Positions 22,134 to 44,640 are shown, counted from the first letter of the stretch. The stretch is 64,000 nucleotides of DNA from Actinomycetota bacterium (GCA_046537785.1 JBKHKD010000002.1:71082-135081); one strand, 5' to 3'. Notes: generated by a model from the letters alone, not told the origin. Translations and numbers: made by a program.

Positions 22134-22138
22134 ATCGG

Positions 22139-22222: not shown

Positions 22223-22242
22223 GGAGCCGTCAATTCTATCCG

Positions 22243-26015: not shown

Positions 26016-26185
26016 CCGACCGGCCAATGGGAGGTTTGCGGGGCGGCAGCTGCCGACCGACCGGCGTCTGTTTGGCCGACTTACGCAGGTCGTGACGGGC
26101 CGAACCGGCGTGGAATCCCGGGAGTGGCGAGAGTCGGCATGGCCCGGGAGACTGGCGGCCAAAGTCGGTCGGCCATCAAAACGGG

Positions 26186-26214
26186 TTGGCGAATGGTCCG
26201 TAGCTGCGTACACT
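26186..26214 (+). promoter_or_regulatory. Candidate sigma-70-like promoter for rpsA
   Basis: TTGGCG – 17 bp – TACACT about 60 bp upstream of the rpsA ATG. Visual match only. Confidence 0.3.
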
Positions 26215-26273
26215 TTCAATGCCTGCCGACCGGTGCGTTGGCAGAGATCTTCCCAAGAGGTAACTACCCACAC

Positions 26274-27788
26274 ATGTCCAACCCCCAAGAGAACGCGTCC
26301 GTAACCGCTCCGGATAACGAGGAGACGGTGGAGGCGCCCGAGACCCCGGCTGCTGACGAGGCCGCCGACGAAGCAGCCACCCCGGAGGAGTCAGTCGACA
26401 CTCCCACCCCCGAGTCTTCAGAGACAGACACCGAGGAGACCCCCGCCGAGTCGAGCGACGACGCCACAGCCGAGACGTCCGGAGACCCGGCCGGCGACTC
26501 CGGCCCCAGGTATCAGGAGCGAGAGGCCCTGGTCGCACCTGACCTGAGCGACCTTCCCGACGACATCGGCGACGACTTCGAGAAGGCCATCGAGGCCACC
26601 GTGCTCGAGTTCAAGGAAGGGGACATCGTCGAGGGGACCATCGTGAATGTCGACTCCGAGGGTGCCCTCGTCGACATCGGTTACAAGTCGGAGGGGTTCA
26701 TCCCCACCCGCGAGCTCTCCATCCGCAACAACATCGACCCCGAGGAGATGGTCTCCGTCGGAGACCGCGTGGAGTCGGTCGTTCTCGACAAGGAAGACGA
26801 CGAAGGCCGTCTCATCCTCTCCATGAAGCGGGCGATGTACGAGCGCGCCTGGGGTCGAATCCAGAAGGTGTCCGATGAGGAAGGCACTGTCGAGGGGACC
26901 GTCATCGAGGTCGTCAAGGGAGGTCTCATCGTCGACATCGGCCTGCGCGGCTTCCTTCCCGCCTCACTCGTCGACCTGAGACGGGTCCGGGATCTCGAGC
27001 CCTTCATCGGGCAGACGATCACCGCCAAGGTCATCGAGCTCGACCGGGCCAGGAACAACGTGGTCCTCTCCCGCCGGGCCCACCTCGAGGAGGCGCTCGC
27101 CGAGGAGCGGAACGAGTTCCTCGACAACCTCCAGGAGGGCGAGATCCGCGAGGGGAAGGTCTCGTCGGTGGTCAACTTCGGGGCCTTCGTCGACCTCGGC
27201 GGCATGGACGGCCTCGTGCACGTGTCCGAGCTCTCCTGGCAACACGTCAACCATCCGGGCGAGCTGGTGAGCGTCGGTGACGAGGTCAAGGTCAAGGTGC
27301 TCGAGGTCGACCGGGACCGTGAGCGCATCTCGCTGTCGATCCGCCAGACCACCGAGGACCCCTGGGATGTGTTCGCCAATGAGAACGAGGTCGGAGACAT
27401 CGTCGAGGGGACAGTCACCAAGACTGTGCCTTTCGGCGCGTTCGTATCGGTCGCCGACGGTGTCGAGGGACTGGTCCATGTGTCCGAGATCGCCATGCAT
27501 CGCGTCGAATCGCCGGAACTGGAGCTCTCCATCGGGCAGAAGGTCCGCGTGAAGATCACCGAAAAGGAAGACGAGCGGCGCCGGGTATCGCTCTCCATCA
27601 AGCAGGCTCTGCCCGACTACAACGAGAGGGCGGCTCAGACCGAGGAGAAGCGGAAGCCCCGCAAGGAGCGCGAGTTCGAGCGGGAGTTCGGTGCTGATGA
27701 TGAGGAAGAGCGTCCGCCGATGCCCGTGGATGCGTCCCTCGAGGCCATTCTCAAAGAACTGAAGGAACGTGGAATCGGTCGCCGGTAG
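26274..27788 (+). CDS. rpsA: 30S ribosomal protein S1 with an extended acidic N-terminus
   Basis: Four S1 repeats (GDIVEGTIVNVD…, GTVEGTVIEVVKGG…, GEIREGKVSSVVNFGAFV…, GDIVEGTVTKTVPFGAFV…). ATG 26274 is preceded by AAGAGG. About 110 aa of E/T/P/A/D-rich sequence precede the first S1 domain. Confidence 0.9.
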   Translation: MSNPQENASVTAPDNEETVEAPETPAADEAADEAATPEESVDTPTPESSETDTEETPAESSDDATAETSGDPAGDSGPRYQEREALVAPDLSDLPDDIGDDFEKAIEATVLEFKEGDIVEGTIVNVDSEGALVDIGYKSEGFIPTRELSIRNNIDPEEMVSVGDRVESVVLDKEDDEGRLILSMKRAMYERAWGRIQKVSDEEGTVEGTVIEVVKGGLIVDIGLRGFLPASLVDLRRVRDLEPFIGQTITAKVIELDRARNNVVLSRRAHLEEALAEERNEFLDNLQEGEIREGKVSSVVNFGAFVDLGGMDGLVHVSELSWQHVNHPGELVSVGDEVKVKVLEVDRDRERISLSIRQTTEDPWDVFANENEVGDIVEGTVTKTVPFGAFVSVADGVEGLVHVSEIAMHRVESPELELSIGQKVRVKITEKEDERRRVSLSIKQALPDYNERAAQTEEKRKPRKEREFEREFGADDEEERPPMPVDASLEAILKELKERGIGRR

Positions 27789-27842: not shown

Positions 27843-28062
27843 TGTAGATGAGGTGCCCGGAGCGTCTTTTCGGTCGGCAGTGGGCCTCGGTGCCCATAGA
27901 TTTGTGGGCCGAAAAACTCAAGACTGGCGTCTTCAGGTCCGACAATCACATGTGTTATCGAACCTGATAAGCAAGGCGGGTGCACGCTCGCCGTTACTAT
28001 GCCCTCTCTCCTCATCGCGGCAAGAGCGATGATCGAAGGAGGGGACAACCGAAGGGGACTCA

Positions 28063-28992
28063 ATGGGTAGGAGAGCAATAGTTCTTCTAGTGGCCTTGGT
28101 TTTGGCCGGATTGGCGGCTTGGGCCGTCTGGAACTTCATGCAGAACGTACGCGGTGAGGCCGAGGCCGGCCAGGAGCAGGTCACGGTTTTCCGCGCCGGC
28201 ACGGGTGGGGTCGCCGAAGGAACCGAAGGCAGCATCCTCCTGTCGGACTTCGAAGGTGGCGGAACACAGATCGTCGAGGGAACCGACGAGGTCGAGGACA
28301 CGCCCCCGGACGCCATCCAGTCCGAAGAGGAGCTTCGTAAGATACTCAGCGAACGCGTCGCGGCCGGCCCGATCTCCGAGCAAGCCATTCTGACCCGCTC
28401 CCAGTGGACCGAGGTGACCGTCGACGTGGAGCCTCTGGCCGATCAGATCGCATCGGGCAACCAGGCGATGACGATCTCGACCAGTGACGTCCAGGGCGTG
28501 AACGGTTTCGTCGAGGCCGGTGACCGGATCAACATGATCATCACCCTCGACATCGAGTTCGACAACATCCCGGTCGACGATGCCCCGGCTCTTCCCGACC
28601 CGGAAGACGAGGAAGAAGCGGAGGAGGAAGAGGAGACCGTCACCATTACCTACACCCGTTATGTGCTCCAGGGGCTCAACGTCCTTGCCGTGGGTCGTGA
28701 CGTCCGTGAAGAGGACGACGGTGACCAGACCGGTGAAATCGATGCCGACCAGGGTGCCGCCGAAGGCGAAGATGGCCAGGAGCAGGAAGGCGAAGAGCAG
28801 CAGGGCAACGACACGGTCTTCACTCTGGAGGTGACTCCGGACCAGGCCGAGCGTGTCGTCTACGCATTCCAGAATGGTTCGATCTGGCTTACCCTGGTGC
28901 CGGAAGATTTTGTTGAGATCGAGTCTGATGGTGTCACGATCGACAACCTGTTCGGGGGAGACCTCGTGGACTCGATCTTCGGAGACAACTAG
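28063..28992 (+). CDS. cpaB: Flp pilus assembly protein CpaB/RcpC-like (SAF domain) with acidic inserts
   Basis: N-terminal TM (AIVLLVALVLAGLAAWAVWNF), a SAF-like region, and a C-terminus VFTLEVTPDQAERVVYAFQNGSIWLTLVP typical of CpaB. D/E-rich low-complexity inserts. Confidence 0.7.
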   Translation: MGRRAIVLLVALVLAGLAAWAVWNFMQNVRGEAEAGQEQVTVFRAGTGGVAEGTEGSILLSDFEGGGTQIVEGTDEVEDTPPDAIQSEEELRKILSERVAAGPISEQAILTRSQWTEVTVDVEPLADQIASGNQAMTISTSDVQGVNGFVEAGDRINMIITLDIEFDNIPVDDAPALPDPEDEEEAEEEEETVTITYTRYVLQGLNVLAVGRDVREEDDGDQTGEIDADQGAAEGEDGQEQEGEEQQGNDTVFTLEVTPDQAERVVYAFQNGSIWLTLVPEDFVEIESDGVTIDNLFGGDLVDSIFGDN

Positions 28993-29010
28993 TTAGAGGA
29001 CAGATTTCTC

Positions 29011-30201
29011 ATGTCAATGGCCGAGCACAACCTCCTGGTCGTCGACCAGGACGACGACTTCGTCGCCAGCGCTAAGGAGCTGTTCGACGGAAGTCTTCCG
29101 GTTGCGCGCTCTCTCGAAGAGGCGAGTCAGACCGTGGCGTCCGGTGACGTCAGGATGATTCTCGTCGGCCCGTCCTACACCTCCGACGAAGCCATGGAAC
29201 AGATCCGTGAGCTCCACAATCAAGACCCGTCCCTGGTCTTGATGGTCGTGGCTGAGGAGGTGACGGCCGATCTGCTCCGCAAAGGCATGCGCTGTGGGGT
29301 CTCGGACGTGATCGAGTCGCCGCTGGACGAGGAGAAGATCGAGGCCGCTATCGAGCAGTTCGCCCACGACGTGCTTCACAGACGTTCGCCAGCGACGGCC
29401 GCACCACAGCCTTCAGGCGAAGAAGAGGGTGCCGAAGGCCGGATCATCACCGTGAGCTCGGCGAAGGGTGGCTCGGGCAAGACCGTTCTGGCAACGAATC
29501 TGGCTCTCGTGCTTCAGCGTCTGCCGGACACGAAAGTGTGTCTGGTCGACGCCGACCTCCAGTTCGGAGACGTCTGTCTGGTACTCCAGCTCGAGCCCCG
29601 CTTCACGATGGTCAACGCGGCCCACGAGTTGCATCATCTCGACGGTGAGCTGCTCGACTCCCTCCTCACCGAACATCCCAGCGGGCTGAAAGTGCTGGCC
29701 GCACCGTTGGAGCCGGCCTTCGCCGACGACATCACCACCGCCGGTCTGATGCAGATGCTCGACATCCTGAAGGAGAACTACGACTACGTGATAGTCGACA
29801 CGGCGGCGATGCTCGACGAGTTGATCCTGTCACTCATTGAGAAGTCCGACGACGTGCTCATGCTCGTCGACATGGACCTGCCTTCAGTCAAAAACGCCAA
29901 GCTCGCGCTCGAGACCCTCCGCCTCCTCAAGTTCTCCACCTCGAACGTGCAGTTGGTGATGAACAGGTCGAACTCCAAGGCCAAGCTGGACAACAAGGAA
30001 ATCGAAGGGGCCCTCAAGATGGAGATTGCAGCGTCGATACCTTCAGATGCGATCGTCGCCGCCTCGGTCAACGAGGGGCGTCCGGTCGTGGAAACGGATC
30101 CAAAATCTAAAGTAGCAAAGGGCTTCGAGTCAGTTGCCGAGCTGATCGCAGGCAAGATTCCAGAAGCCCAGTCAAAGTCCGGATTGTTCGGACGTAAGTA
30201 G
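29011..30201 (+). CDS. cpaE: Flp pilus assembly protein CpaE/TadZ
   Basis: N-terminal degenerate receiver-like domain plus a MinD/ParA-type ATPase. Deviant Walker A IITVSSAKGGSGKTVLATNLA. Confidence 0.8.
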   Translation: MSMAEHNLLVVDQDDDFVASAKELFDGSLPVARSLEEASQTVASGDVRMILVGPSYTSDEAMEQIRELHNQDPSLVLMVVAEEVTADLLRKGMRCGVSDVIESPLDEEKIEAAIEQFAHDVLHRRSPATAAPQPSGEEEGAEGRIITVSSAKGGSGKTVLATNLALVLQRLPDTKVCLVDADLQFGDVCLVLQLEPRFTMVNAAHELHHLDGELLDSLLTEHPSGLKVLAAPLEPAFADDITTAGLMQMLDILKENYDYVIVDTAAMLDELILSLIEKSDDVLMLVDMDLPSVKNAKLALETLRLLKFSTSNVQLVMNRSNSKAKLDNKEIEGALKMEIAASIPSDAIVAASVNEGRPVVETDPKSKVAKGFESVAELIAGKIPEAQSKSGLFGRK

Positions 30202-30215
30202 GGAAGGGGCCAGCA

Positions 30216-31571
30216 TTGCCATCACTATCTGAAAGAGTTGCAGCAGCCCGACAGACCGAGTCGTCAGACACGACCGTCAACAGGAGCGATGCGCTCAGTG
30301 ATTTGCGCGGCCGTCTCCACTTCAAGGTGGTCGAGGAACTCGGACCGACCCTGTACGACAGGGGGATGTCCGACGCCGAGCTTCGTCTCCGCGTGTTGGA
30401 GATGCTCGAGTGGGCGGTCGACCAGGAGCAGGGTCTTCCCCTCACCTCCGCCGACCGGCGCGCCCTCCTCAACGAGATCGCTTCGGACGTACTCGGCTAC
30501 GGTCCCATCGACCCGCTGCTCAACGACCCGGACGTCACCGAGGTCATGGCCAACGGGCCCTACGACATCTACTACGAGAAGAACGGCCGCATCCTGAAGT
30601 CGGATGTCCGGTTCGTGGACGAGACCCACCTGCGGCGCATCATCGACAAGATCGTCGGCCAGATCGGTCGTCGTGTCGACGAGGCGACCCCTATGGTGGA
30701 CGCCCGTCTCCCCGACGGCTCCCGTGTCAACGCCATCATCGCCCCGCTGGCGATCGGCGGGCCGTTCCTGACGATTCGTAAGTTCTCCGTCGACCCGTTC
30801 CAGGAGGCCGACCTGATCAGCTTCGGCACGCTGACCCAGCGTGTCGCCGACTTCCTACGGGCCTGTGTCCGGGGACGTCTCAACATCATCATTTCAGGCG
30901 GTACTGGCTCCGGTAAGACCACCACTCTCAACGTGGTGTCGGCATACATCCCCGGCGATGAGCGCATCATCACCGTGGAGGACGCCGCCGAGCTCCAGCT
31001 CCACCAGGAGCACGTGCTTTCGCTCGAGTCCCGCCCGGCCAACATCGAGGGCAAGGGTGCGGTGGAGATCCGTGACCTGGTGAAGAACTCCCTGCGTATG
31101 CGTCCCGACCGCATCGTCGTCGGTGAGGTTCGTGACGCCGCCGCCCTGGACATGCTCCAGGCCATGAACACCGGTCACGACGGGTCGCTGACCACCATCC
31201 ACTCCAATACCCCTCGTGACACCCTGTCCCGTATCGAGACCATGGTCATGATGGCCGGCTACGACCTGCCGGTCCGGGCCATTCGCGAGCAGGTGTCTTC
31301 GGCGGTCGACCTGATCGTCCACGTCTCCCGTCTCAAGGACGGCACCCGTAGGGTCACCCACGTGACCGAGGTGGAAGGCATGGAGGGCGAAGTCATCACC
31401 CTTCAGGACCTGTTCCTCTTCGACTACGGCATGGGCGTCGACGACGATGGCGTCTACAAGGGTCGCCTCAAGGCCACGGGAATCCGCCCCAGCTTCTCCG
31501 AGGACCTGGAGAACCAGGGCATCCGGCTTCCCGCCGACCTGTTCGACCCCGAGCCGTTCGCCCGCAGATGA
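30216..31571 (+). CDS. cpaF: Tad secretion ATPase CpaF/TadA
   Basis: Walker A GGTGSGKTTTLN, an Asp box, Walker B and a His box (TIHSNTPRDTL). TTG start with a GGGAAGGGG SD. Confidence 0.9.
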   Translation: MPSLSERVAAARQTESSDTTVNRSDALSDLRGRLHFKVVEELGPTLYDRGMSDAELRLRVLEMLEWAVDQEQGLPLTSADRRALLNEIASDVLGYGPIDPLLNDPDVTEVMANGPYDIYYEKNGRILKSDVRFVDETHLRRIIDKIVGQIGRRVDEATPMVDARLPDGSRVNAIIAPLAIGGPFLTIRKFSVDPFQEADLISFGTLTQRVADFLRACVRGRLNIIISGGTGSGKTTTLNVVSAYIPGDERIITVEDAAELQLHQEHVLSLESRPANIEGKGAVEIRDLVKNSLRMRPDRIVVGEVRDAAALDMLQAMNTGHDGSLTTIHSNTPRDTLSRIETMVMMAGYDLPVRAIREQVSSAVDLIVHVSRLKDGTRRVTHVTEVEGMEGEVITLQDLFLFDYGMGVDDDGVYKGRLKATGIRPSFSEDLENQGIRLPADLFDPEPFARR

Positions 31572-33523
31572 AGAAGCTCCTCGCGGTTGTCGCCGCGCTG
31601 TTCCTGGTCGCTCTACCCGCCTGGGGACAGACCGAATCCCAGGAAATCGAGATCGTCGACATCAACGGGTCGCGCTACCCCGAGGGTGGTCAGACCCAGA
31701 TGGTCATCGAGTTCCGCGACTTCGCCGAAGAGCCCGATCCCGAGGCTCTCGAGGTGACCGCCAACGGCGAGCCGGTGTCCGATCTGGTCGTCGAGCCCGT
31801 GGGCGCCTCCGCCGTGCCTGTCGGTGTGGTGCTGGCGATCGACACTTCCGGGTCGATGGAAGGCGAGCCCATAGCTGCGGCCATCAGCGCCGCGCAGAGC
31901 TTCGTCGACCAGGCCAGGGCCGAAGACCGCATTGCCCTGGTCACCTTCAATGATGAGGTGCAGGTTCTCTCCGGTTTCACCAACAACAAGCAGTCCCTCA
32001 ATTCCACTCTCGAGTCGATAACCGCCGAGGGTGAGACCGCATTCAACGACGGGGTAATCCGCGGCATCGAGATGTTCGAGGAACCCGGGGCGTCCAGCCT
32101 TCTCCCCAACATGATCGTTTTGACCGATGGCGAGGACACCGCTTCGGAGTCGTCTCTAGACGATGCCCTGGCGGCCGTCGACGGCACCGACGTACGTACT
32201 TTCTCCGTCGCCCTCGAGGGGTCTGATTTCAACCCCGAGGCTGTGGAGCAAGTGGCTACGGCTGGTGGCGGATTGTTCCTGTCGACACCCGATCCCGAGC
32301 AGCTTTCCCAGCTCTACACCGAGATCAGCCGGGAGATCAGCAACACCCTCGTGGCACGGTTCGTGTCGCCCATCTCGACACCGGGCGAGGTCGACTTCGA
32401 AGTCGGCTACGAGGGGCTGAGCTCGGCAGAGGTCTTCCCCGTCTCGGGCTATGAGGTCACGACTACAACGAGCGAGCCGGGCGAGACGACGACCACCACA
32501 TTGGCCCCATTGACGGGGACTGTCGTGGAGGGTGGGGCCGCACTGCCTCTGGATACTTTGATCCTGATCGGTGCGGCAGGTCTGGGCCTAACGTTGTTCC
32601 TGTTCCTGGTCATCCTGTTTGGCCGGGAGGAGGAAGACGAGCCCGGTCGTTTCGCCGCTCGTCTCCAGGCCTATGGGCGACGTGGCCAGCAGGAAGGGGA
32701 GGAGGAGAGGTCCTTACTGGAGCGCATCCCTCTGCTGAATCGATTCACCCAGGCGGCCGAGGAAGAGGTGCGGAGACGGGGGCTCCTATCCGGAGTCAAC
32801 TCGACGCTGGAGCAGGCAAACATTCCCATGACCGCCGGCGAGGCGATCCTCGGAATGATCGGGCTCTCCGCCGTGGGTGGGATCCTCGTCGGGATCTTCA
32901 ACGGCGCCATCACCGGGGCCATCGCTTTCGGCTTGTTCCTTATGTTGTCGGTGTTCCTGATCCGTTTCGCCGGCTCCCGGGAGAAGAGGAAGTTCGAGAA
33001 TCAGCTGCCCGACACTCTCACCCTCATGTCGACGTCGTTGCGGGCCGGTTACTCGCTGTTGCAAGCTACCGAGGCGGTGTCCAAGGAGTCGCCTAACCCC
33101 ACAGCCCGGGAGTTCGGCCGGGCCATCGCCGAGGCCCGGCTTGGCCGCTCGGTGACTGAGGCGTTGGAGGGGGTGGTGGAGCGGACCCAGTCAGAGGACT
33201 TCCAGTGGGCCGTCATGGCCATCGAGATCCAGCGTGAGGTCGGCGGTAACCTCGCCGAGGTGCTTCAGACCGTGGCCGACACCATGCGGGCACGAAACCG
33301 TCTCAAGGGCGAGATCAGGGCTCTCACTGCAGAGGGACGCATCTCCGCATTCGTCCTTGGGTCACTCCCATTCGCCATGTTTCTGTTCTTGTGGACCTCA
33401 AACCGTGACTATTTGCTTCCGCTGCTAGAGAACACCTTCGGAATCATTGCGATAATCATCGGAGTGATGCTGATGGCCGGTGGGATCTTCTGGCTCAAGA
33501 AGATCGTGGATATCGAGATATGA
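31568..33523 (+). CDS. Signal peptide plus von Willebrand factor A domain fused to a TadB-like inner-membrane platform protein
   Basis: N-terminus: signal peptide MKKLLAVVAALFLVALPAWGQ, then vWA with a MIDAS motif (VLAIDTSGSMEG … LTDGEDT). C-terminal roughly 320 aa: TM plus a GspF/TadB-like domain (PMTAGEAILGMIGL…, QLPDTLTLMSTSLRAGYS…). ATGA-coupled to cpaF. Confidence 0.75.
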   Translation: MKKLLAVVAALFLVALPAWGQTESQEIEIVDINGSRYPEGGQTQMVIEFRDFAEEPDPEALEVTANGEPVSDLVVEPVGASAVPVGVVLAIDTSGSMEGEPIAAAISAAQSFVDQARAEDRIALVTFNDEVQVLSGFTNNKQSLNSTLESITAEGETAFNDGVIRGIEMFEEPGASSLLPNMIVLTDGEDTASESSLDDALAAVDGTDVRTFSVALEGSDFNPEAVEQVATAGGGLFLSTPDPEQLSQLYTEISREISNTLVARFVSPISTPGEVDFEVGYEGLSSAEVFPVSGYEVTTTTSEPGETTTTTLAPLTGTVVEGGAALPLDTLILIGAAGLGLTLFLFLVILFGREEEDEPGRFAARLQAYGRRGQQEGEEERSLLERIPLLNRFTQAAEEEVRRRGLLSGVNSTLEQANIPMTAGEAILGMIGLSAVGGILVGIFNGAITGAIAFGLFLMLSVFLIRFAGSREKRKFENQLPDTLTLMSTSLRAGYSLLQATEAVSKESPNPTAREFGRAIAEARLGRSVTEALEGVVERTQSEDFQWAVMAIEIQREVGGNLAEVLQTVADTMRARNRLKGEIRALTAEGRISAFVLGSLPFAMFLFLWTSNRDYLLPLLENTFGIIAIIIGVMLMAGGIFWLKKIVDIEI

Positions 33524-34455
33524 GCGCCTTCGACCCAATCCTCATCGCCGTTGTGGCCGTCTTCGCCCTGGTCCTGTTCGTGGTCGTCTGGGTGGGGATG
33601 GGTGTTACCCAAGCGCGTGAGGACATGGCCAACCGGTTGGAGCTCTACGGCCGGGACACCGTCGCTGGCGCCCGCGAGGACGAGTTGGCCAAACCTCTGG
33701 CGCAGCGGACTGTAGGCCCTGTCGTCATCAGGTTGGGCAACTTCCTGAAGCGATTCACCCCGGTCGGGTATCTGGAAAAAAAACAGCGCAAGCTGATGCT
33801 CGCGGGCTATCCGGGTAATCTAGATGCTCCGGCATTCACGGTGGTGAAGCTGCTTACCACTGCCCTCGGTCTGGGTGCGGCGTTTGTTCTTATCGATCTT
33901 GGCGCCGATGCGCTCCAGCAGGTCGTGTTATTCGCTTTGCCCATCGCCCTTGGATTCTTCGGACCCGACGCATGGTTAGAACGCAAAGTCGGTGATCGGC
34001 GACAGGCGATGTTGCGTTCACTACCCGACATACTCGACTTGTTAGTGATTTCGGTTGAGGCGGGTCTCGGTTTCGACTCTGCGCTGGCCCGTGTCGTCGC
34101 GACAGTTCCGGGGCCGTTGTCGGAGGAGTTCTACAGAATGCTCCAGGAGACTCGAGTCGGTGTTAGTCGTCGCGACGCAATGAGACACCTCTCGGAACGG
34201 ACCGACCTCGAGGAACTGAGATCGTTCCTCTTGGCCATGATCCAGGCGGAGGCTTTCGGTGTCACCATCGCCAGAGTTCTGCGGGTGCAGGCCGACGAGA
34301 TGCGTGTCAAGAGGCGGCAGCGGGCGCAGGAGAAGGCGTTCGCCGCTCCGGTGAAACTGGTTTTCCCTCTCGTGTTCTGCATCTTTCCGTCGTTGTTCAT
34401 AGTTCTTCTCGGTCCGGCTGCGATCCAGATCGCTGAAGCCTTCGCTTCGACATGA
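33520..34455 (+). CDS. tadC: TadC-like platform protein (GspF-family)
   Basis: 311 aa. TM, then a GspF-like domain (LPDILDLLVISVEAGLGFDSALARV), then TMs. ATGA-coupled. Confidence 0.75.
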   Translation: MSAFDPILIAVVAVFALVLFVVVWVGMGVTQAREDMANRLELYGRDTVAGAREDELAKPLAQRTVGPVVIRLGNFLKRFTPVGYLEKKQRKLMLAGYPGNLDAPAFTVVKLLTTALGLGAAFVLIDLGADALQQVVLFALPIALGFFGPDAWLERKVGDRRQAMLRSLPDILDLLVISVEAGLGFDSALARVVATVPGPLSEEFYRMLQETRVGVSRRDAMRHLSERTDLEELRSFLLAMIQAEAFGVTIARVLRVQADEMRVKRRQRAQEKAFAAPVKLVFPLVFCIFPSLFIVLLGPAAIQIAEAFAST

Positions 34456-35798
34456 CCGGGACGGCCGCGCACGGGGCGCGGCGTCTCTCCATTTCTCATC
34501 TCGCCCTCCTGGTCCCTTGGGTGGCGCTGGTCATCGACGCGTTTCAGCCGATCGGGGACAATTCGTTCCTCTGGCACGTTCGTGCGGGCACCTTGCAGGC
34601 AGGACGCGCAGAAGTTCTCACGTCGGACCCCTTCTCATTCACGATGTCGGGAGAGCCATGGCGTACTCAGAGCTGGCTGGCGGAGCTCCTCTATGGGTGG
34701 GGAGAGAACATGTTCGGATTGGGTTACGTCCCCTACATGATCCTTCTCGTTGGGACGCTCACATTCATTGGCATTGGCCTGCTCGCCTATCTCCACTCGA
34801 GGAGCGTGCCTGCGACCGCGTTTGTTCTGGTTCTGGCTGTCCTGGCCTTGATCAGTTTCCTGGTGCCGCGGCCCGTCATTCTCTCCTATCTTCTCATGGT
34901 GCTGGTGATCCTCGCCTGGGATCAACCGGCCACGCGATGGACAATTCCCTTGCTGTTTTGGATTTGGGCCTCGGTTCACGCCAGTTTCGTCATAGGTCTC
35001 CTATACGTGGGTGTGACGCTCATCATGAGGAAGAATTGGCGTCTGCTTCCCGTAGCGGTGGTTGGTGGGGTGGCAACGCTGGCAACAGCGCACGGTCTCG
35101 GGGTGGTGTCGTTCCTTCTCGACTTCGGGCAGAACAGCGACGTCCTCCAGTATCTGACCGAGTGGCGCGATCCCGAGTTGTTCGAGCCGGTGTTTCTCCC
35201 CTTTGCCGGTTCAATCGTCTTTATTGTCATCGGGGCGTTTCGGGACCGGATCTCGCCCCGCCATCTCTGGTTGTTGGTCCCGTTCCTAGCTCTAGGGCTG
35301 AGTTCGGTCCGTGCCATACCTCCGGCATTTCTCGGCCTGATTCCGCTGGTAGCCATCTCTCTGTCAGGCCTTCAGATTGGCACGCGAGCGGGTCTACGCC
35401 CTCAGCTGGCTGCGATATTTGCCCTCGTGGTTCTGTTCATACCATGGCTGTTGACTTCAGGCACCGGTCTATCCGAAGAACGGTTTCCTCTGGAAGCCAC
35501 TGCGAGTCTGGGCGCCGTGCCCACATTCCACGATGATCGCGTGGGCGGCTATCTGATATGGGCGCTTGGCCCGGACCGGAAGGTCTACATCGATGACCGG
35601 GCCGAGCTCTATGGCGGTCGGATGGCCGAATTCGTTGCTGTGCGGCGCGGGGAGACTCCTTGGGAGCCCGTCTTCGAACGTGATGGAATCGAACAGGCCG
35701 TGCTAGCGAACGGCGAACGGTTGGTGGATGAGCTGCGTTCGTCGGGGTGGATTGAAGTGCACGCCGATGAGCATTTCACGGTCCTTCGCCCAGGGTGA
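34452..35798 (+). CDS. Polytopic membrane protein of unknown function, last gene of the tad operon
   Basis: 448 aa with 10 or more TM helices and a roughly 100-aa soluble C-terminal domain. ATGA-coupled to tadC. No family recognised by eye. Confidence 0.55.
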   Translation: MTGTAAHGARRLSISHLALLVPWVALVIDAFQPIGDNSFLWHVRAGTLQAGRAEVLTSDPFSFTMSGEPWRTQSWLAELLYGWGENMFGLGYVPYMILLVGTLTFIGIGLLAYLHSRSVPATAFVLVLAVLALISFLVPRPVILSYLLMVLVILAWDQPATRWTIPLLFWIWASVHASFVIGLLYVGVTLIMRKNWRLLPVAVVGGVATLATAHGLGVVSFLLDFGQNSDVLQYLTEWRDPELFEPVFLPFAGSIVFIVIGAFRDRISPRHLWLLVPFLALGLSSVRAIPPAFLGLIPLVAISLSGLQIGTRAGLRPQLAAIFALVVLFIPWLLTSGTGLSEERFPLEATASLGAVPTFHDDRVGGYLIWALGPDRKVYIDDRAELYGGRMAEFVAVRRGETPWEPVFERDGIEQAVLANGERLVDELRSSGWIEVHADEHFTVLRPG

Positions 35799-35825
35799 GC
35801 CAGCAAGGCCACGTTGGTGGTGACA

Positions 35826-35860
35826 AGAAAAAGGGGCCCGGCTAAGCGGGCCCCTTTCCG
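35826..35860. terminator. Bidirectional intrinsic terminator between the tad operon and the flp genes
   Basis: aaaaaggggcccg-gctaa-gcgggcccctttcc: a GC stem flanked by an A-tract on one side and a T-tract on the other. Confidence 0.6.
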
Positions 35861-35873
35861 TCTAGTTGGTTGA

Positions 35874-36053
35874 CTACGTCTGGTCGAGACCAGAAGCGAT
35901 GTCACTGAACGTTCCGGACACCTCTTCACCGGCGAGTGCGACGGCGACGAGAGCGATGATGGCGATCAGCACCACGAGTAGAGCGTACTCCACCATGGAA
36001 GCGCCCTTCTCATTGTCCATCCAGGTCTTTACCTTGGTCCACAGAGCAAGCAT
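35874..36053 (-). CDS. flp: Flp-family type IVb prepilin
   Basis: 59-aa product MLALWTKVKTWMDNEKGAS|MVEYALLVVLIAIIALVAVALAG…: Flp motif G/(A)SxxEY followed by a hydrophobic stretch. SD AAGGAGG lies 5 nt upstream of ATG 36053. Confidence 0.75.
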   Translation of the reverse strand: MLALWTKVKTWMDNEKGASMVEYALLVVLIAIIALVAVALAGEEVSGTFSDIASGLDQT

Positions 36054-36147
36054 TGACCCCTCCTTGGGTTGTCGTACATGGGCTTGCAGTGGGCAAATTA
36101 GCCCACAAGTATCCGGAGACAATGGGTCTCCGGAATCATGAGAAATG

Positions 36148-36333
36148 TCAAGGACCGGCTTCCACCAGGCCGGAGCCGATCTCCGAGTAGGTCGAAGAGA
36201 GCTCGGTACCTGCCAGTTCCACTGCCACGAGGGCAACGATGGCTATGAGAACCGCGAGCAGCCCGTATTCGGCCATCGAGGCGCCCCGGTCATCGAATCG
36301 AAGCTTCTGATATAGACGTATCAACAAACTCAA
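36148..36333 (-). CDS. flp: Flp-family type IVb prepilin, tandem paralog
   Basis: …RFDDRGAS|MAEYGLLAVLIAIVALVAVELAG… The TTG start is uncertain by two or three codons. Confidence 0.7.
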   Translation of the reverse strand: MSLLIRLYQKLRFDDRGASMAEYGLLAVLIAIVALVAVELAGTELSSTYSEIGSGLVEAGP

Positions 36334-36409
36334 ACCTCTGTTATTGCTGTTGTCAGCGTAAGACCGAACGCGGGCGTTGCTGATAGGTCGCAGGGCTTAT
36401 TGGTTTCGG

Positions 36410-37048
36410 TCAATGCGGTCGGGCGATTCCGAGCTTGATCGCTTCGATCGCGGCCTGAGTGCGATCACTTACTGCCAGTTTCTGGAATATCGAGGCCAAA
36501 TGATTCTTGACGGTCTTCTGCGATATGTACAGCCGATCGGCCAGCTCGTCGGTGGCAGAGACGCCTATGGCGAGTAGCTGGAGGATTTCCCGCTCCCGCG
36601 GGGTGAGAGAGGCGGCGCCAGGATCGAGTTCCGCTTCCCCGTAGCTCTCCAGCAAGGAGTCGCGTTCCTCGTCATTCAGTTCGATGAGGTTCTGTCCGTC
36701 GGCAACGGCACGGACGGCGGATGCCAGAGTGCCGAGGGGGACAGCCTTGGAGAAGAAGCCGACGGCTCCCGCCTCGACTGCTCGCTTCTTCTGCTCGTCG
36801 TTGGCGTACATGGAGACGACGATCGCCTTGGATCGCCGTCCCAGTTTGGCAATCGTCTCGATTCCGTCTCCGCCGGGCATCTCGATGTCCACGATGGAGA
36901 CCTCGGCGGGCTGGCTCTCCAGAAGGGAATCGAGCTCAGGACCTGAATTGACGACACCCACCACCCTGGCGTCGGGGAGACTGTTGAGAGCCTGACTAAG
37001 GCCTTCAGCAAACAGTTGATGATCGTCGGCGATCATGACTCGAATCAT
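36410..37048 (-). CDS. NarL/LuxR-family response regulator
   Basis: REC domain (IADDHQLF…DIEMPGGDG) plus a LuxR HTH (LTPREREILQLLAIGVSATDELADRLYISQKTVKNH). Start at MIRVMIADD gives a 4-nt ATGA-type overlap with the kinase stop. Confidence 0.85.
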   Translation of the reverse strand: MIRVMIADDHQLFAEGLSQALNSLPDARVVGVVNSGPELDSLLESQPAEVSIVDIEMPGGDGIETIAKLGRRSKAIVVSMYANDEQKKRAVEAGAVGFFSKAVPLGTLASAVRAVADGQNLIELNDEERDSLLESYGEAELDPGAASLTPREREILQLLAIGVSATDELADRLYISQKTVKNHLASIFQKLAVSDRTQAAIEAIKLGIARPH

Positions 37049-38547
37049 CGCGACCCCCATTCAACCGTCACCGCGGTGCCAACCCCCGGCTTTGAGTCGA
37101 ATTTGATGGTTGCACCGATCTTCGACGCTCTTTCCCTCATCCCCATGAGGCCGTAATGGCCCTCAGGCTCGTGTTCGGGGTCGAATCCGACACCGTCGTC
37201 AACGACGGAACAGGAACCGTATGCACGATCGATCTGCCCTGAGATCACCACCATGGTTGCTTCAGAGTGCTGATGGGCGTTGCGGGCTGCTTCGGCGATG
37301 ATCGAGGTCAGGTCTCCGATCAGTGTCGGGCGGGGTGGGCGACGTTCCTCTAAGTCGACGATTACCGGAGGATCGCCATCGAGAGTCGAAGAGGCCTGGA
37401 GTACCCTTGCTGTCAAGGTTGGGCCTGGGGCATTCCGGAGATCTGCAACGGAGGCGCGGACGTCTTCGACCAGCTTGGTGACGTTGGACCGGAGCACCTG
37501 GAGGTCGGCCGCCACCTCGGGGTGGTCGGATTGCTGCATCGCTGTCATGTCGAGTGCGAGGCCCAGGGATGCGAGTGACGGGCCGATCTCGTCGTGCATT
37601 TCCCGGGCGAGCCTGACTCGCTCCTCGGCCACCGCAGACCCGACGATTTCCTGAAGCAGTTGCAGATTGGCGAAAGCGACACTCACAGGGTGGATGATCG
37701 CCGCCACCTGGGCGAGATCGCCAGGGGACATAGCGTGTGGTGTGGTCAGTTCCAGGTTCCCGACCTTTGTGTCGGAAGTGGAAAGCGGTAGGTCGTAGAC
37801 GTGTCCGTTCTCCTCCGGGATTCCACGAGCGGCGAGGACGACTGTCCCTTGGTCTCCTTCGATGGCGAGCTTGCCGGCAGATCCGGGGAAGCGCTCGAGA
37901 ATCGTCTCGAGCGTGTCGGCTCCTACCTCCGTCGCATTGAGGCGCCCCGCCGACACGTCCTCCGAAAGTCGGAGCAGAACACTGTGAATCTCCTCGAGTC
38001 GCTCCAGACGCTTGGTCGCTGACTCCTTTTCCTCGGCCAGGCTGGTGGCCTGCGCGTGGATGTCCTCGAGGAGACGGCGAATGACGCCTACCAATAGGAC
38101 GAAGATCAGATAGAGAGCGATGGCTGGAGCCGTGCCTACGAGCGAATCTCCATTCGCCAGGCTCACGAGAGCTAGGAGCGCTCCGGCCAGAACACCCGTG
38201 GTCAGGCCAGTACGGAGCCCGCCATAGATGGTTGCGAAAACCGGGGGCCCCATAGAGAGGAGCAGGTAGGCGCTGTTGGCGCCTCCGGTGAGAGTCATGG
38301 CGATGAGCACGACCACGGCGCTCAGCAGGCAGATCGCTTCGACTCCGAAACGACGCCAGAACCATGCTTCCGGGATGAGTGTGGTGCCGATAACGTAGGC
38401 GCCCGCGATGCCCATTGCAGCCAGTGATTGGGCGGAACCGCTGCTCTGGACGAGTGAGGAGACGATGCCGACGGTGAGGGCCACCCATTGGCCGATTACT
38501 ACGGTGCGATGGACGCGGGTCTCCCAGGGAGCCGGTGTGGCTAGCAT
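37045..38547 (-). CDS. Sensor histidine kinase (HisKA_3 type) with a multi-TM N-terminal sensor
   Basis: About 6 TM segments, then LAREMHDEIGPSLASL (HisKA_3 H-box) and an HATPase_c domain. Confidence 0.85.
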   Translation of the reverse strand: MLATPAPWETRVHRTVVIGQWVALTVGIVSSLVQSSGSAQSLAAMGIAGAYVIGTTLIPEAWFWRRFGVEAICLLSAVVVLIAMTLTGGANSAYLLLSMGPPVFATIYGGLRTGLTTGVLAGALLALVSLANGDSLVGTAPAIALYLIFVLLVGVIRRLLEDIHAQATSLAEEKESATKRLERLEEIHSVLLRLSEDVSAGRLNATEVGADTLETILERFPGSAGKLAIEGDQGTVVLAARGIPEENGHVYDLPLSTSDTKVGNLELTTPHAMSPGDLAQVAAIIHPVSVAFANLQLLQEIVGSAVAEERVRLAREMHDEIGPSLASLGLALDMTAMQQSDHPEVAADLQVLRSNVTKLVEDVRASVADLRNAPGPTLTARVLQASSTLDGDPPVIVDLEERRPPRPTLIGDLTSIIAEAARNAHQHSEATMVVISGQIDRAYGSCSVVDDGVGFDPEHEPEGHYGLMGMRERASKIGATIKFDSKPGVGTAVTVEWGSR

Positions 38548-38571
38548 GATCGAAGGCTACCGTCCTGCCTC

Positions 38572-39150
38572 GTGACTTATCAGGAGCATCGTTGGATCCT
38601 CAGTGGTGGTCTCGCCTCCGGCAAGAGCCAGGTGAGGCGGTTGCTCGAGGAGCACGGATTTCACACGATCGACGCGGATCGGGTCGGTCACGACGTCCTG
38701 CGATCCGAGGGTCCTGCTTTCGACGAGGTCGTCACTCGCTGGCCCGACATTGTCGCGGACGGCGAGGTCGACCGCCGCGCCCTGGCTGCGGTCGTGTTCA
38801 ACGATCCAGTGGAACTCGCTGCGTTGGAGGCGATTACACACCCTCATATCTTCGACATGATCAATGCCCGGGTGGAGGATGTTGACGAAGCCGTGGTGGT
38901 CGAGGTTCCGGTTCTCGGGCACTCACTTGGCCCCGATTGGCGCAGGATCGTCGTCGATTGCCGGGACGAAATCCGTCTCGAGCGCGCAATCAGCCGTGGA
39001 ATGGCCGCGGCAGATGCTCAGGCGAGGATGGCATCTCAGCCGTCCCGAGCCGAATGGCTTGCGGTGGCGGACGTCGTGCTGCCGAACACCGGCACACTCC
39101 TGGACCTCCGACACACGGTGGACCGATGGACGAGCGTGACAGGTGTTTAG
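38572..39150 (+). CDS. coaE: Dephospho-CoA kinase
   Basis: P-loop GGLASGKS followed by a CoaE-like body; 192 aa; GTG start. Confidence 0.8.
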   Translation: MTYQEHRWILSGGLASGKSQVRRLLEEHGFHTIDADRVGHDVLRSEGPAFDEVVTRWPDIVADGEVDRRALAAVVFNDPVELAALEAITHPHIFDMINARVEDVDEAVVVEVPVLGHSLGPDWRRIVVDCRDEIRLERAISRGMAAADAQARMASQPSRAEWLAVADVVLPNTGTLLDLRHTVDRWTSVTGV

Positions 39151-40655
39151 TCGGGCCCGGCCAGATCGCCTTCGGCAAGTCGGGTTGCAATCGACAAGAC
39201 TCGTTCTGAGGTCACCTGCACCGGCTGGTCTGCTCCGACCAGGAAGCCAACAGGTTCCTTCGGCAGATCGGCGATGACCGTGCACTCCATGATCGCGCGC
39301 ATGGCATAGACATTCGTAGGTTCGTCCGGTCCGTCACATCCTCCGGGAATCCTGTAGGCGAGAAGGGCGCCGAGACGCTCGGCTATGTCGGCGTTGCTCC
39401 AGGTTTCTGAGGGGGACCCGACCTGTCCTCCCTCGCCGGTGCCGTGGTCGCCGGCGATGAGCACGGCGACATCGCGATCCAGGCTTGCAACGACATCCAG
39501 AAGGAGCGAGTCGACACATGAGAGTTGTTGGCGCAGGCGGTGATAGTCATCATCTGAGTCTGGGCGGGTTTCCGTTGCCACCACTTCGCATTTGGAGTCT
39601 ACGACGTACGGGGCATGAGGCAGGAACATGTGGGCGAATACCACATACGGTTCGTCATCGTCGAAGGCGTCGAGATTCGCGAGATGGTCGACTACGGGGA
39701 TGGTGTTGACTGCTGCCATCGAACCGTGTCTCTCCTCGATGATGTCCGCAAAGATGCTGGGCGCTAAGAGGTTCCAGTTGGCTTCACTCAACCAGGAGCT
39801 CTCAAGACATACGTCGGCACGGATACATGTTGACCCATCCCAACCACCCTCGATGTGGATGTATTGGAATCCGGCACTCCGCAGCGTCTCAACGACGAGA
39901 TTCTCTCCCCCGATTATGTCGTAGCTGCTTCGACGGTTACCCCATTGTCCCTTCGGAGAGTCGTCTGCTATCTGGTTTAGTTGAAGGATGCTGGGCACCG
40001 CAAGGCCGGTGAATGTGTTGTGGGACCATGAGACTTCGGGAACCTCGAACCCAGCTTCCATGAGGCCTTCTTGGAGTGGTTCGGTGTCGTGTCCGAACCA
40101 CTGGTCCGCGACCGACAACATGGGATAGCCATCAACGATGAGCACGAGAACATCTTCGACAGCCTCGGTGGGTCTCGCATCGACTGAGGAGTGGGCCTCG
40201 GATAGCGGGTAAGGGACACGGTGCGACACGTGCTGCGTTACGACCTGGAGCGCGGGAGCAAGCAGCGTCAAGGCCAGAATCACAACCACGAGATAGGTGT
40301 TGGTTCGATCCGAAACAGCCCAGTGGAGAAGTGCCCCAACCGCAGCGACCAAGACGAGCCACACGACTCCGGGTACCAGGAGAGTGGTGTGATAGTTGAG
40401 CAGGACGAAGAGGGTCCCGAAGACGATGAATCCGGCCGGGATCTGCCGGACTTCGAACGCGATCAAGGCGAAGAACACCAAAATGCCAATCGCCAACCCG
40501 ATCGACGACGTGAGGAAAACGTCCAAGGGGTTGGCGAGATCCCATGGATTCGCAGCCCAGAAGACGAGCGGCCTATAGAAGCTCCCTGCCACGACAAGCG
40601 AGATTCCCATCCATATCCGCTTTGTCTTCGATCGCTCGCTTCTCACGTTTCTCAT
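39147..40655 (-). CDS. Membrane-anchored alkaline-phosphatase-superfamily enzyme (sulfatase/LtaS/phosphodiesterase-like), paralog 1
   Basis: Four or five N-terminal TM segments plus an extracytoplasmic domain with [28 protein letters not shown] and IAGDHGT. Confidence 0.7.
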
Positions 40656-42957: not shown

Positions 42958-44532
42958 TCAGCCGGCGTCATTCTGTAGGAAAGGTTCCATCCTGACAATA
43001 GGTCCACCGAACCCCGCCGCGTAATGACGTGTATCGAGTGTCGGGATTGGCTTTCCTGAGAGACACGACATGACCTCCCGGAATATGTTGACGGTAGTGA
43101 TGTCGTCAGGAAGCTCGCCGCGGCACGGCTCAGGAAGGCGGACGGCGCTTATCGTCGAGAATCGTTCTCTCAGTGCCGCATCAGGATTCTTGGAATCTAG
43201 AACCCAGTAGGAGTCTGGTCCGTGATCAGAGAGGATCACTACGATGGCGTCTGGGTCTACCTGACTCAGAAACGCTCGAAGGGTCTGGTTTGCGCATCGA
43301 ACTTGGTCCACCCACGCGTCTCGACGACGTTCCAACTGTTCCTCGGACATGTTTCCATCGTTCATGATGCGACCACCGAGATCAGGGTTGATACGCAAGT
43401 CGCAGTCGGCGTCCAGGAACAGCGGAGGATGTGGCAATGGAATGTGCAAGAAGACGAATTTCGGCGGCCCACGGCGCCAGTCCCTGACGAAGTCGTTCCA
43501 GTGTTCTAGCTGATCGATTCTCGCCAGGTTCAGGGCTGTCGTCGGGTTGTTGGCTTCCGGGTAGAAGAGACCGCCCGCCGGCGTGTTGAGGAGCAGCGCG
43601 TGTCCGGTGATGTCGAGGCCTGGACCAGGCACGCAGATATCGACCTCACCACCGCATTGGTTGTGCCAGTGGTCAGCTTCGGCATGTATGTACGTGTAGC
43701 CATTCGCTTTCAAGAGATTGACCAGGTCATTCTCACCAGCGACTTGACTCGCCAGATATGCGAGGTCTCGATTAGCGAACTCTGCTCCCTCTTGGTGTAC
43801 ATACGACATATTCAAGAGAGCGGGGAGCGAAAAGTGTGTGACTGAGTAATTGGCGACCGACTCGCGGGCGACATCGAATCCCAGGGCTCGGAGGTCATTT
43901 AGGAACGGCTCGTTGTCGTAGCCATAGAGATCTCGAATCACATCGGATCTCCCGTACCCGTCGAGAACTATCAAGACGATGTCTGGCTTCTCGACGAGCG
44001 TTTCGATCTCGATCGGTGTCTGGACACCTACCGATCGTTCCGGAGCCAGGATCGTGCTCGTCGCCGCATACAGCGACAGCGCTCCCGAATATGCCACAGA
44101 AATCACGAAGACGAGAAGCTTGAAGTAGTGCTGGTTGCCATACTTGATTGCCGCTGACAACACGAGTAGGAACACGATTAGGGATGTCGCGGCAGGATCA
44201 AGAGGACCGAAACCCTCTCCAGCGGACCAATGCCAGAAGGAGAGCAGCGTGACAGAAACTGCGGCGAGCGCCCTCCAGCTGGACACATCACGACGGGCAA
44301 ACGGAAGATACAGCCCTGTTGAGATGACGGTGAGTGCGGTACCGATGATGAAAACGCCCTCCACTGAAGCAAGAGCGGCCTGAGTGCCAGTCATGACAGC
44401 CAAGGGGCGATGGAACGACAGGGCGGTCAACTGCAAGAGAGCCCACCAAAGCGAAGGGCGAGCCCGGCTGGTTAATGAAGAGCCAACTCTCGCTGGTGGT
44501 GCGAGAGACTTCCGGTTACCCGCGACAGTCAT
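42958..44532 (-). CDS. Membrane-anchored alkaline-phosphatase-superfamily enzyme, paralog 2
   Basis: N-terminal TM segments; KPDIVLIVLDGYGRSD, SVTHFSLP, FVFLHIPLPHPP and ILSDHGPDS. Noticeably lower GC. Confidence 0.7.
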   Translation of the reverse strand: MTVAGNRKSLAPPARVGSSLTSRARPSLWWALLQLTALSFHRPLAVMTGTQAALASVEGVFIIGTALTVISTGLYLPFARRDVSSWRALAAVSVTLLSFWHWSAGEGFGPLDPAATSLIVFLLVLSAAIKYGNQHYFKLLVFVISVAYSGALSLYAATSTILAPERSVGVQTPIEIETLVEKPDIVLIVLDGYGRSDVIRDLYGYDNEPFLNDLRALGFDVARESVANYSVTHFSLPALLNMSYVHQEGAEFANRDLAYLASQVAGENDLVNLLKANGYTYIHAEADHWHNQCGGEVDICVPGPGLDITGHALLLNTPAGGLFYPEANNPTTALNLARIDQLEHWNDFVRDWRRGPPKFVFLHIPLPHPPLFLDADCDLRINPDLGGRIMNDGNMSEEQLERRRDAWVDQVRCANQTLRAFLSQVDPDAIVVILSDHGPDSYWVLDSKNPDAALRERFSTISAVRLPEPCRGELPDDITTVNIFREVMSCLSGKPIPTLDTRHYAAGFGGPIVRMEPFLQNDAG

Positions 44533-44640
44533 GCGTTTCTATTCTGATAGGGAACCATCAAGGAAACTGGCGATTCGGTCGTTAGAGAGTTTGGTGAGTT
44601 TCGGGATCAGGCCACGTTTGTTGCCAACCAGGGAGATCTG

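Follow-up and report, generated by a model that had tools for sequence, protein, structure and literature searches.

The DNA analysed here is a 64-kb stretch (the window) from an Actinomycetota bacterium (GCA_046537785.1, JBKHKD010000002.1:71082-135081), and all coordinates refer to this window unless a related locus is named. Using a listing of open reading frames (ORFs) together with Pfam and NCBIfam profile searches, we found that positions 28063-38547 hold the genes of a Tad/Flp pilus and those of a two-component system, with rpsA on one side and coaE on the other. Each gene named in a preliminary description of this DNA was recovered at matching coordinates. The features are listed below (aa, amino acids).

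26124-27788, + strand: rpsA (ribosomal protein S1), upstream flank, outside the system; four Pfam S1 domains, E 3.5e-85
27880-27897, strandless: palindrome GTGGGC-CTCGGT-GCCCAT in the rpsA-cpaB spacer, candidate binding site of the regulator
28063-28992, + strand: cpaB/rcpC; Pfam RcpC, E 2.4e-21; TIGR03177, 81.1 bits against a cut-off of 71 bits
29011-30201, + strand: cpaE/tadZ; Pfam AAA_31, ParA and CbiA; Response_reg at 25 bits, below its 30.2-bit cut-off
30216-31571, + strand: cpaF/tadA; Pfam T2SSE, E 8.4e-64
31568-33523, + strand: vWA-tadB fusion; Pfam VWA at aa 87-251 and T2SSF at aa 484-608
33520-34455, + strand: tadC, the second platform protein; Pfam T2SSF, E 5.7e-20
34452-35798, + strand: multi-pass membrane protein of 448 aa with a predicted GT-C fold; no Pfam or NCBIfam match
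35828-35854, - strand: intrinsic terminator of flp1, read from the sequence
35874-36053, - strand: flp1, a 59-aa Flp prepilin; Flp_Fap, 37.3 bits against a gathering cut-off of 32.2 bits
36089-36106, strandless: palindrome GTGGGC-AAATTA-GCCCAC, candidate operator, possibly overlapping the flp1 promoter
36148-36333, - strand: flp2, a 61-aa Flp prepilin; Flp_Fap, 35.0 bits against the 32.2-bit gathering cut-off
36410-37060, - strand: NarL/FixJ-type response regulator; Response_reg, E 1.9e-19; GerE, E 5.1e-17
37045-38547, - strand: sensor histidine kinase; Pfam HisKA_3 and HATPase_c
38572-39150, + strand: coaE (dephospho-CoA kinase), downstream flank, outside the system; Pfam CoaE, E 4.1e-35

The genes cpaF, tadB, tadC and the gene of the 448-aa protein (hereafter the GT-C gene) are joined by 4-nt overlaps, each start overlapping the preceding stop, which indicates translational coupling, and we regard the six genes from cpaB to GT-C as one operon. 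The units cpaB to GT-C and kinase-regulator-flp2-flp1 converge on a hairpin terminator that they share. At the other end, kinase and coaE are divergent and their start codons are separated by only 24 nt (38547-38572). Hence, each promoter lies inside the coding sequence of the other gene, or transcription comes from further off. Farther out, polA lies upstream of rpsA, and coaE is followed by the gene of a 502-aa membrane protein and then by uvrB (Pfam).

CpaB has an N-terminal membrane anchor (aa 5-23), an RcpC domain and an acidic insert, as judged by transmembrane (TM) prediction and Pfam. CpaE/TadZ combines an atypical receiver domain with a ParA/MinD-type ATPase (KGGSGKT at aa 152), and CpaF/TadA is a secretion-type motor ATPase with the Walker A motif GGTGSGKTT at aa 228. 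The top NCBIfam model for CpaF belonged to the TadA family and scored 329 bits, under its equivalog cut-off of 373 bits. The platform pair, TadB and TadC, is represented by two T2SSF proteins. In the first of these, a signal peptide (aa 1-20) is followed by a vWA domain, a Thr-rich linker (aa 298-311), a TM helix (aa 331-349) and the TadB domain; the DxSxS MIDAS motif of the vWA domain reads DTSGS (aa 92-96). From this order we infer that the vWA module is extracytoplasmic and tethered to the platform. The fusion was retained in relatives down to ≈ 52% identity, and TadB of two distant loci (L169 and L174, see below) was without vWA, which argues for an innovation of a sub-lineage. A TadG-TadB fusion was also considered and rejected, as BLAST comparison of the vWA half with the TadG-related protein of the Pseudarthrobacter plasmid pACHL01 revealed no similarity. 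Pfam scans of the ≈ 55 ORFs of the window detected no secretin. A consensus scan for sigma-70 promoters returned a single site, which lies within tadC and is at chance level, and no Rfam family matched the locus.

Both prepilins carry the G/XXXXEY processing site and the hydrophobic helix typical of Flp. The flp1 gene is preceded by the ribosome-binding site AAGGAGG and encodes the leader MLALWTKVKTWMDNEKG; cleavage at EKG/ASMVEY leaves a mature part of 42 aa. In flp2, for which the start codon is uncertain, the cleavage site is DRG/ASMAEY. Relatives carry one to four flp copies, and the median identity in relatives was 79% for flp1 versus 60% for flp2. Owing to this lower conservation, our guess is that flp2 may act as a minor pilin. 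In one related locus (L157, 11314-11367), the GT-C gene and the regulator gene are just 53 nt apart, with no flp gene between them. The flp1 terminator (35828-35854, - strand) consists of an 8-bp G+C stem (GGGGCCCG/CGGGCCCC) with a 6-nt loop, followed by TTTTT. Its stem was partly conserved in an alignment of relatives; a consensus terminator scan missed the element.

The Pfam scans of the window contained neither Peptidase_A24 (TadV) nor the TadE and Tad families, and the latter two were also lacking from the gene lists of related loci. A six-frame motif scan of the window gave no further ORF with a class-III signal peptide. These scans bore out the earlier statement that the window lacks tadV and tadE/F. 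We extended the peptidase search to 2.08 Mb of related loci, where the GxGDxK motif yielded no candidate among hydrophobic ORFs of at least 100 aa; its sole match was in a hydrophilic ORF. It follows that tadV lies > 10 kb away in all related loci, or is absent. The preliminary description had left three options open: an incomplete locus, reliance on genes elsewhere, or substitution by the membrane protein. The second is the likeliest by precedent, as tadV is typically unlinked in actinobacterial tad loci (PMC4322843) and is accepted as a "loner" by the MacSyFinder Tad models (PMC6668835). The absence of TadE/F/G is more unusual than the unlinked tadV, because other actinobacterial tad loci, including that of pACHL01, have TadE/TadF/TadG-type pseudopilin genes after flp (PMC4322843).

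In other respects, the region resembles the tad loci of Micrococcus luteus (tad-1 and tad-2), Bifidobacterium breve and Mycobacterium tuberculosis, which are likewise secretin-less and have tadA, tadB, tadC and a short G/XXXXEY prepilin. The nearest CpaF in a plasmid collection was that of pACHL01 (59% identity), whose locus also has RcpC/CpaB and a TadZ-like ATPase and no linked peptidase. Compared with these actinobacterial loci, the GT-C protein, the secreted vWA domain on TadB and the dedicated two-component system are additions, and the position beside rpsA is fixed, whereas the others reside on a plasmid or at variable chromosomal sites. Caulobacter crescentus Cpa shares homologues of CpaB, CpaE and CpaF as well as short Flp pilins without a globular domain (PMC11067988), but has the CpaC secretin, an in-cluster CpaA peptidase and minor pilins, and neither a GT-C protein nor a vWA-TadB fusion. 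The region is a distinct Tad subtype, with a GT-C enzyme, no TadE/F/G, a dedicated NarL-type kinase-regulator pair and, in one sub-lineage, the vWA-TadB fusion.

Conservation and chromosomal position of the locus

All homologues of the system came from metagenome-assembled genomes (MAGs) of uncultured Acidimicrobiia and from metagenomes. Two independent sets were compared. The first was an rpsA-anchored scan that did not presuppose Tad genes and covered 80 species-representative genomes with rpsA 65-86% identical; the second consisted of 80 metagenome loci retrieved by way of the 448-aa protein, with identities as low as 40%. In every genome whose contig extended at least 900 nt past rpsA (76/76), the next gene was cpaB. 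The order cpaB-cpaE-cpaF-vWAtadB-tadC-448aa / flp-regulator-kinase was present wherever the sequence of relatives extended. The GT-C gene directly followed tadC in 120/120 loci, and coaE followed the kinase in 29 of 30; uvrB comes after coaE. The same held for distant lineages. Locus L169, with a GT-C protein only 27% identical and CpaF 64% identical, has the order rpsA-cpaB-cpaE-cpaF-tadB-tadC-GT-C / flp-regulator-kinase. The order in L174, on a 4.59-Mb contig, is of the same type and runs on into coaE-uvrB; its GT-C protein (P0280) is 49% identical to that of L169.

The proteins of the locus are strongly constrained. In the 30 loci with all genes, median identities were 89.6% for CpaF, 81.1% for CpaE and 78.0% for TadC, compared with 75.6% for polA and 74.0% for rpsA. 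CpaF was 87-94% identical across these related loci, and the ranges for rpsA and PolA were 65-86% and 70-85%. The constraint on CpaF is unusually strong for a pilus motor. Since a single Tad system is found next to the same housekeeping genes in each of the species sampled, and since the motor is more conserved than S1, we regard the locus as a core trait of the lineage and not as an accessory colonisation island.

The preliminary description had proposed that the region is an island inserted between rpsA and coaE. These two genes were not adjacent in any relative examined, which is the very observation that the description had named as arguing against insertion, and the claim is not supported. 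Empty rpsA-coaE sites or a patchy presence were not seen among the 76 genomes and the distant lineages, all of which carry the locus. A recent horizontal acquisition of the kind known as a "widespread colonisation island" nevertheless deserves to be weighed, because Tad loci are often horizontally transferred (PMC6668835; PMC3767616). The composition is of some relevance here: G+C is slightly lower at 33-37 kb (0.59-0.61) than upstream (≈ 0.64). However, there is no sharp boundary, and the lower G+C extends far downstream past the locus. We found no att-like direct repeats bracketing the borders (two short pairs at chance level, D17 and D18, span much of the region), no integrase in the Pfam scans, and no tRNA at either border; the only tRNA of the window is 6 kb upstream, past polA. 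The same insert occupies the same place in every relative examined, distant Acidimicrobiia included, and conservation of the Tad proteins equals or exceeds that of the housekeeping proteins on either side. A further point in favour of insertion is the M. tuberculosis segment Rv1629-Rv1633, in which polA, rpsA, coaE and uvrB are contiguous. If this mycobacterial order is ancestral, any insertion would date back to a deep ancestor of these Acidimicrobiia lineages and would have been inherited vertically since. The M. tuberculosis coaE gene is Rv1631 (PMC7770189). Altogether, a recent insertion is very unlikely. The tRNA mentioned above, tRNA-Leu(CAA), adjoins a 262-aa ORF on the - strand with only weak HTH_23/LAGLIDADG-like matches (tRNA and ORF together at 22137-23031) and is unrelated to the Tad borders.

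We consider it likely that the region is a vertically inherited, chromosomal type IVc (Tad/Flp) pilus system, present throughout the sampled lineages of uncultured Acidimicrobiia and operating by the mechanism proposed below. In soils and waters, Acidimicrobiia are abundant and for the most part uncultured; our literature search found no paper discussing their pili.

As to what such a pilus is for, it could serve mainly in DNA uptake, as in M. luteus, where natural transformation requires Flp pili (PMC4322843), and not as an adhesin. Competence would explain the universal retention of the locus near replication and repair genes: it is present in every related species, is under strong constraint and has polA, uvrB and uvrA as neighbours. 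Adjacency to repair genes is no evidence of function, however, and the Pfam scans of the window found neither comEA nor comEC. In addition, ligand adhesion is suggested by the MIDAS motif of the vWA domain. We therefore hold a primary role in competence to be rather improbable.

The membrane protein encoded after tadC

The 448-aa protein is the only protein of the operon that family searches left unassigned. In Pfam and NCBIfam, neither the protein itself nor ten distant homologues matched the curated GT-C families (PMT_2, STT3, GT87 and others). A profile search of 1.84 billion representatives returned 15,097 relatives at E ≤ 0.001, mostly of 450-520 aa. Of ten relatives tested, none matched Pfam significantly within the part that they have in common with the query; one carried a C-terminal beta-lactamase domain. 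To obtain more information, we turned to structure prediction. An AlphaFold model built with 24 homologues (pLDDT 80.7, pTM 0.81) has a GT-C membrane fold, in agreement with Foldseek. The top structural matches include STT3, AglB and PglB over 370-390 residues, and AftA, AftB, AftD, Emb and PimE were also among the matches. Searched on its own, the C-terminal domain matched the C-terminal globular domain of AglB. A profile search against the PDB gave only PglB, around an invariant Arg, at a non-significant E of 0.087.

From the helices of the model and a count according to the positive-inside rule, the topology is predicted to comprise ≈ 11 TM helices, with the N-terminus inside and a C-terminal globular domain outside. 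Thirteen residues (H42, G46, D59, G67, W75, R140, W172, H176, E237, R287, D381, R383 and W433) were invariant in 40 homologues, down to 24% identity, and D36 was nearly so (at least 90% conserved in the same set). The predicted topology would place all invariant residues at the outer face, with D36 and D59 in outer loop 1. In GT-C enzymes, the catalytic acid is located in the first outer loop.

The preliminary description had suggested that this membrane protein might substitute for the missing components, that is, replace the prepilin peptidase or the pseudopilins and so make the locus self-sufficient, though non-canonical. Its unassigned status and its universal linkage to tadC and flp fit such a role, and it sits where other actinobacterial loci have tadE/F/G (PMC4322843; pACHL01). 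The predicted fold, however, is that of a GT-C glycosyltransferase and not of an aspartic peptidase, and a GxGDxK-type motif is missing both from the protein and from the 2.08 Mb of related loci. The catalytic Asp residues of A24 peptidases are on the cytoplasmic side, whereas the conserved polar residues here would face the exterior of the membrane. We rejected the protein as a replacement for TadV, and substitution for peptidase or pseudopilins in general is barely credible.

Nor does the protein appear to be an oligosaccharyltransferase proper. WWD, and with it the WWDYG motif, occurs nowhere in its sequence, neither mature Flp pilin contains an N-x-S/T sequon, and there is no Pfam match to STT3. 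STT3, AglB and PglB are also longer, with ≈ 700 aa or more compared with 448 aa. One homologue carries the JGI annotation ArnT-like.

The tad-linked branch of the family spans the Acidimicrobiia loci sampled; the wider family is not always tad-linked. The rearranged locus L175 is informative in this respect. Its GT-C gene (5569-7728) has become separated from tadC, yet still converges on two flp genes, and a PemK toxin gene lies in between. As the gene keeps facing flp after leaving tadC, a functional tie of the GT-C protein to the pilins seems plausible. In L175, tadB, tadC, kinase and regulator follow one another on one strand. The GT-C protein of L175 ends in a fused class-A beta-lactamase-like (serine hydrolase) domain, as do P0193, P0340, P0364, P0377, P0385 and P0386. 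Two further variations were seen. In one subclade, a 185-aa ORF with a MOSC domain (E 4e-6) lies between the GT-C gene and flp (L001, 11369-11926; also L051, L056, L058 and L080). In L070 (18230-19513), the GT-C gene is broken over three frames, reflecting either a pseudogene or long-read indel errors. Since L070 is from a long-read MAG, and other loci from long-read MAGs have similarly broken genes, we did not score it as a gene loss.

These features lead us to propose, tentatively, that the GT-C protein may be a dedicated glycosyltransferase of the Flp pilin or of the pilus base, replacing the TadE/F/G set across the locus-bearing Acidimicrobiia lineages. By analogy, the closest functional precedent appears to be TfpW of Pseudomonas aeruginosa group IV type IVa pili, which arabinosylates pilin. 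TfpW is a GT-C protein with 11 TM helices, a cytoplasmic N-terminus, a periplasmic C-terminus and an essential acidic motif in loop 1, and its gene adjoins pilA (bioRxiv 10.1101/2020.04.19.049825). The GT-C fold, the inferred topology, the Asp residues of loop 1 and the adjacency to pilin genes are similar here; this likeness is one of description and not of sequence alignment. TfpW differs in belonging to a type IVa pilus, in its C-terminal TPR domain and in having a known D-arabinofuranose donor pathway. Our literature search did not turn up any Tad locus described as having a glycosyltransferase of its own. If the proposal is true, this would be the first Tad pilus with its own built-in glycosylation enzyme, and glycosylation would be a post-translational step undescribed for type IVc pili in the literature searched. 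The nearest structural relatives, oligosaccharyltransferases including archaeal AglB, would then echo the archaeal ancestry proposed for Tad.

Alternatively, the GT-C protein could build or remodel a wall glycan for passage of the pilus through the thick envelope with its single membrane, with no glycosylation of the pilus itself. Wall glycans are the substrates of many actinobacterial GT-C enzymes that have been characterised, and the fold matches to AftA, AftB, AftD, Emb and PimE are in line with this. Paralogues occur outside tad loci, one of them adjoining a GT87 gene, and some tad-linked members have a C-terminal beta-lactamase/PBP-like domain. The beta-lactamase-like fusions and the members without tad linkage could thus point to a cell-wall substrate. 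On the other hand, the gene of L175 has remained with flp and not with the machinery genes. We rate wall-glycan synthesis as a possibility somewhat below that of pilus glycosylation.

The two-component system and a candidate operator

The proteins encoded by the - strand unit have the features of a NarL-type two-component system, with HisKA_3 and HATPase_c in the kinase and with REC, including the acceptor Asp, and GerE in the regulator. The kinase has 4-5 N-terminal TM helices without a sizeable external domain, followed by a cytoplasmic linker, HisKA_3 with an intact H-box (MHDE, aa 317) and HATPase_c. A distant orthologue of the kinase gave a weak GAF match. In the regulator, the acceptor Asp lies within VDIEMP (aa 57-62) and REC is followed by the GerE helix-turn-helix; the median identity in relatives was 82%. 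The two genes overlap by 16 nt, and the pair accompanies flp in all related loci, very distant ones included.

When the flp regions of 32 relatives were aligned, a palindrome upstream of flp1 stood out as conserved. In the window, the copy at 36089-36106 is perfect and centred 44 nt before the flp1 ATG, that at 27880-27897 lies 182 nt before the cpaB start, and the copy upstream of flp2 is degenerate. To quantify its occurrence, we scanned the loci for the core TGGGC-N6-GCCCA with up to one mismatch, covering 98 cpaB spacers and 277 flp copies. The density of the core was 0.92/kb in the flp region and 0.81/kb in the rpsA-cpaB spacer, as compared with 0.099/kb in the rest of the loci, corresponding to an 8-9 fold enrichment in both regulatory regions. 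The position of the core was narrowly defined: in 18 of the 20 cpaB spacers with a core (20/98), it was 177-183 nt upstream of cpaB, and in the 78 of 277 flp copies that had one, its centre was at a median of 46.5 nt upstream of codon 1. An RNA hairpin was considered less likely, because a half-site is kept at the three sites and the variants are not compensatory; the latter is easier to reconcile with binding by a protein than with an RNA stem. The palindrome is therefore a candidate operator that may link the pilin genes with the machinery operon, and the product of the adjacent regulator gene is the obvious candidate for the protein that binds it.

In the preliminary description, the gene order was taken as a sign that the pilin genes are under direct control of the two-component system. 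The conserved linkage of kinase and regulator to flp and the palindrome at a fixed distance agree with such control but fall short of proof. There is precedent for the arrangement, as a kinase-regulator pair likewise adjoins flp/tad in P. aeruginosa (PprA-PprB) and in Pectobacterium clusters. The adjacent two-component system positively affects flp/tad transcription in Pectobacterium, and the same paper cites a PprB-dependent case in P. aeruginosa (PMC3767616, citing Bernard et al. 2009). Both are double-membrane systems with the secretin RcpA, TadD, FppA/TadV and pseudopilins. The likeness is one of gene arrangement, with no claim of homology between the regulators; regulation in Acidimicrobiia is suggested by synteny and by the candidate operator.

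The rpsA-cpaB spacer contains further conserved elements. Blocks within 27950-28060 were conserved in 92 relatives, including a TACTAT -10-like element ≈ 95 nt before cpaB. The presumed 5' leader holds a conserved stem, CATCGC...GCGATG, which matched no Rfam family.

Proposed mechanism and neighbouring regions

The findings can be combined into the following scheme for the type IVc pilus of these Acidimicrobiia. A TadV-type A24 peptidase from another part of the genome would cleave the prepilins behind Gly17, by analogy with other actinobacteria. CpaF and TadB/C would then polymerise the 42-44-residue pilins through an envelope with a single membrane and no secretin. In the sub-lineage with the fusion, the secreted vWA domain with its MIDAS motif, carried on a Thr-rich stalk, would provide the machine with a ligand-binding module at its base. 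At the outer face of the membrane, the GT-C protein might glycosylate a component of the pilus with a lipid-linked sugar, candidate acceptors being the Ser/Thr-rich tail of the pilin or the Thr-rich stalk of vWA-TadB. The kinase would sense a membrane or envelope signal, and the phosphorylated regulator would bind TGGGC-N6-GCCCA before the flp genes and cpaB and so coordinate the expression of pilin and machinery. The scheme predicts glycosylation of pilin or machinery, a 16-bp operator for the regulator and a single, unlinked tadV.

Several observations weigh against this scheme. TadE/F/G pseudopilins are thought to be necessary in the Tad systems studied, and the locus has none. With no TadV in the window or in the 2.08 Mb of related loci, its location elsewhere in the genome rests on precedent. 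The GT-C protein has no sequence match to any curated glycosyltransferase family and is without WWDYG, and the mature pilins are without a sequon. Several members of the wider GT-C family are not tad-linked, and some carry the beta-lactamase-like fusion. Finally, the palindrome core, even with one mismatch allowed, was present in just 20/98 spacers before cpaB and 78/277 flp copies, the relatedness of the loci inflates its apparent conservation, and the flp2 copy of the window is degenerate.

Two regions downstream of the locus were also noted. The first, between coaE and uvrB (39147-40655, - strand), encodes the 502-aa protein mentioned above, with four N-terminal TM helices and a C-terminal domain. 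The protein itself had no significant Pfam match; Sulfatase (PF00884) was matched by three of 36 homologues. The protein is probably an LtaS/EptA-like membrane enzyme belonging to the alkaline-phosphatase superfamily. Its sequence diverges rapidly, identities in relatives being 25-55%, and the coaE-uvrB gap was at least 400 nt, which leaves room for such a gene, in 11 of 23 related loci.

The second region, between uvrB and uvrA (42958-58452), holds a phosphonate-type glycan cluster. Among its products are a cytidylyltransferase-PEP mutase fusion (44641-45951), a TPP decarboxylase (45948-47057) and an Fe-alcohol dehydrogenase (47050-48165), as well as two more membrane proteins of the Sulfatase family, GT2 transferases, a DegT aminotransferase and a hexapeptide acyltransferase. 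This gene content suggests a surface polymer decorated with phosphonate.

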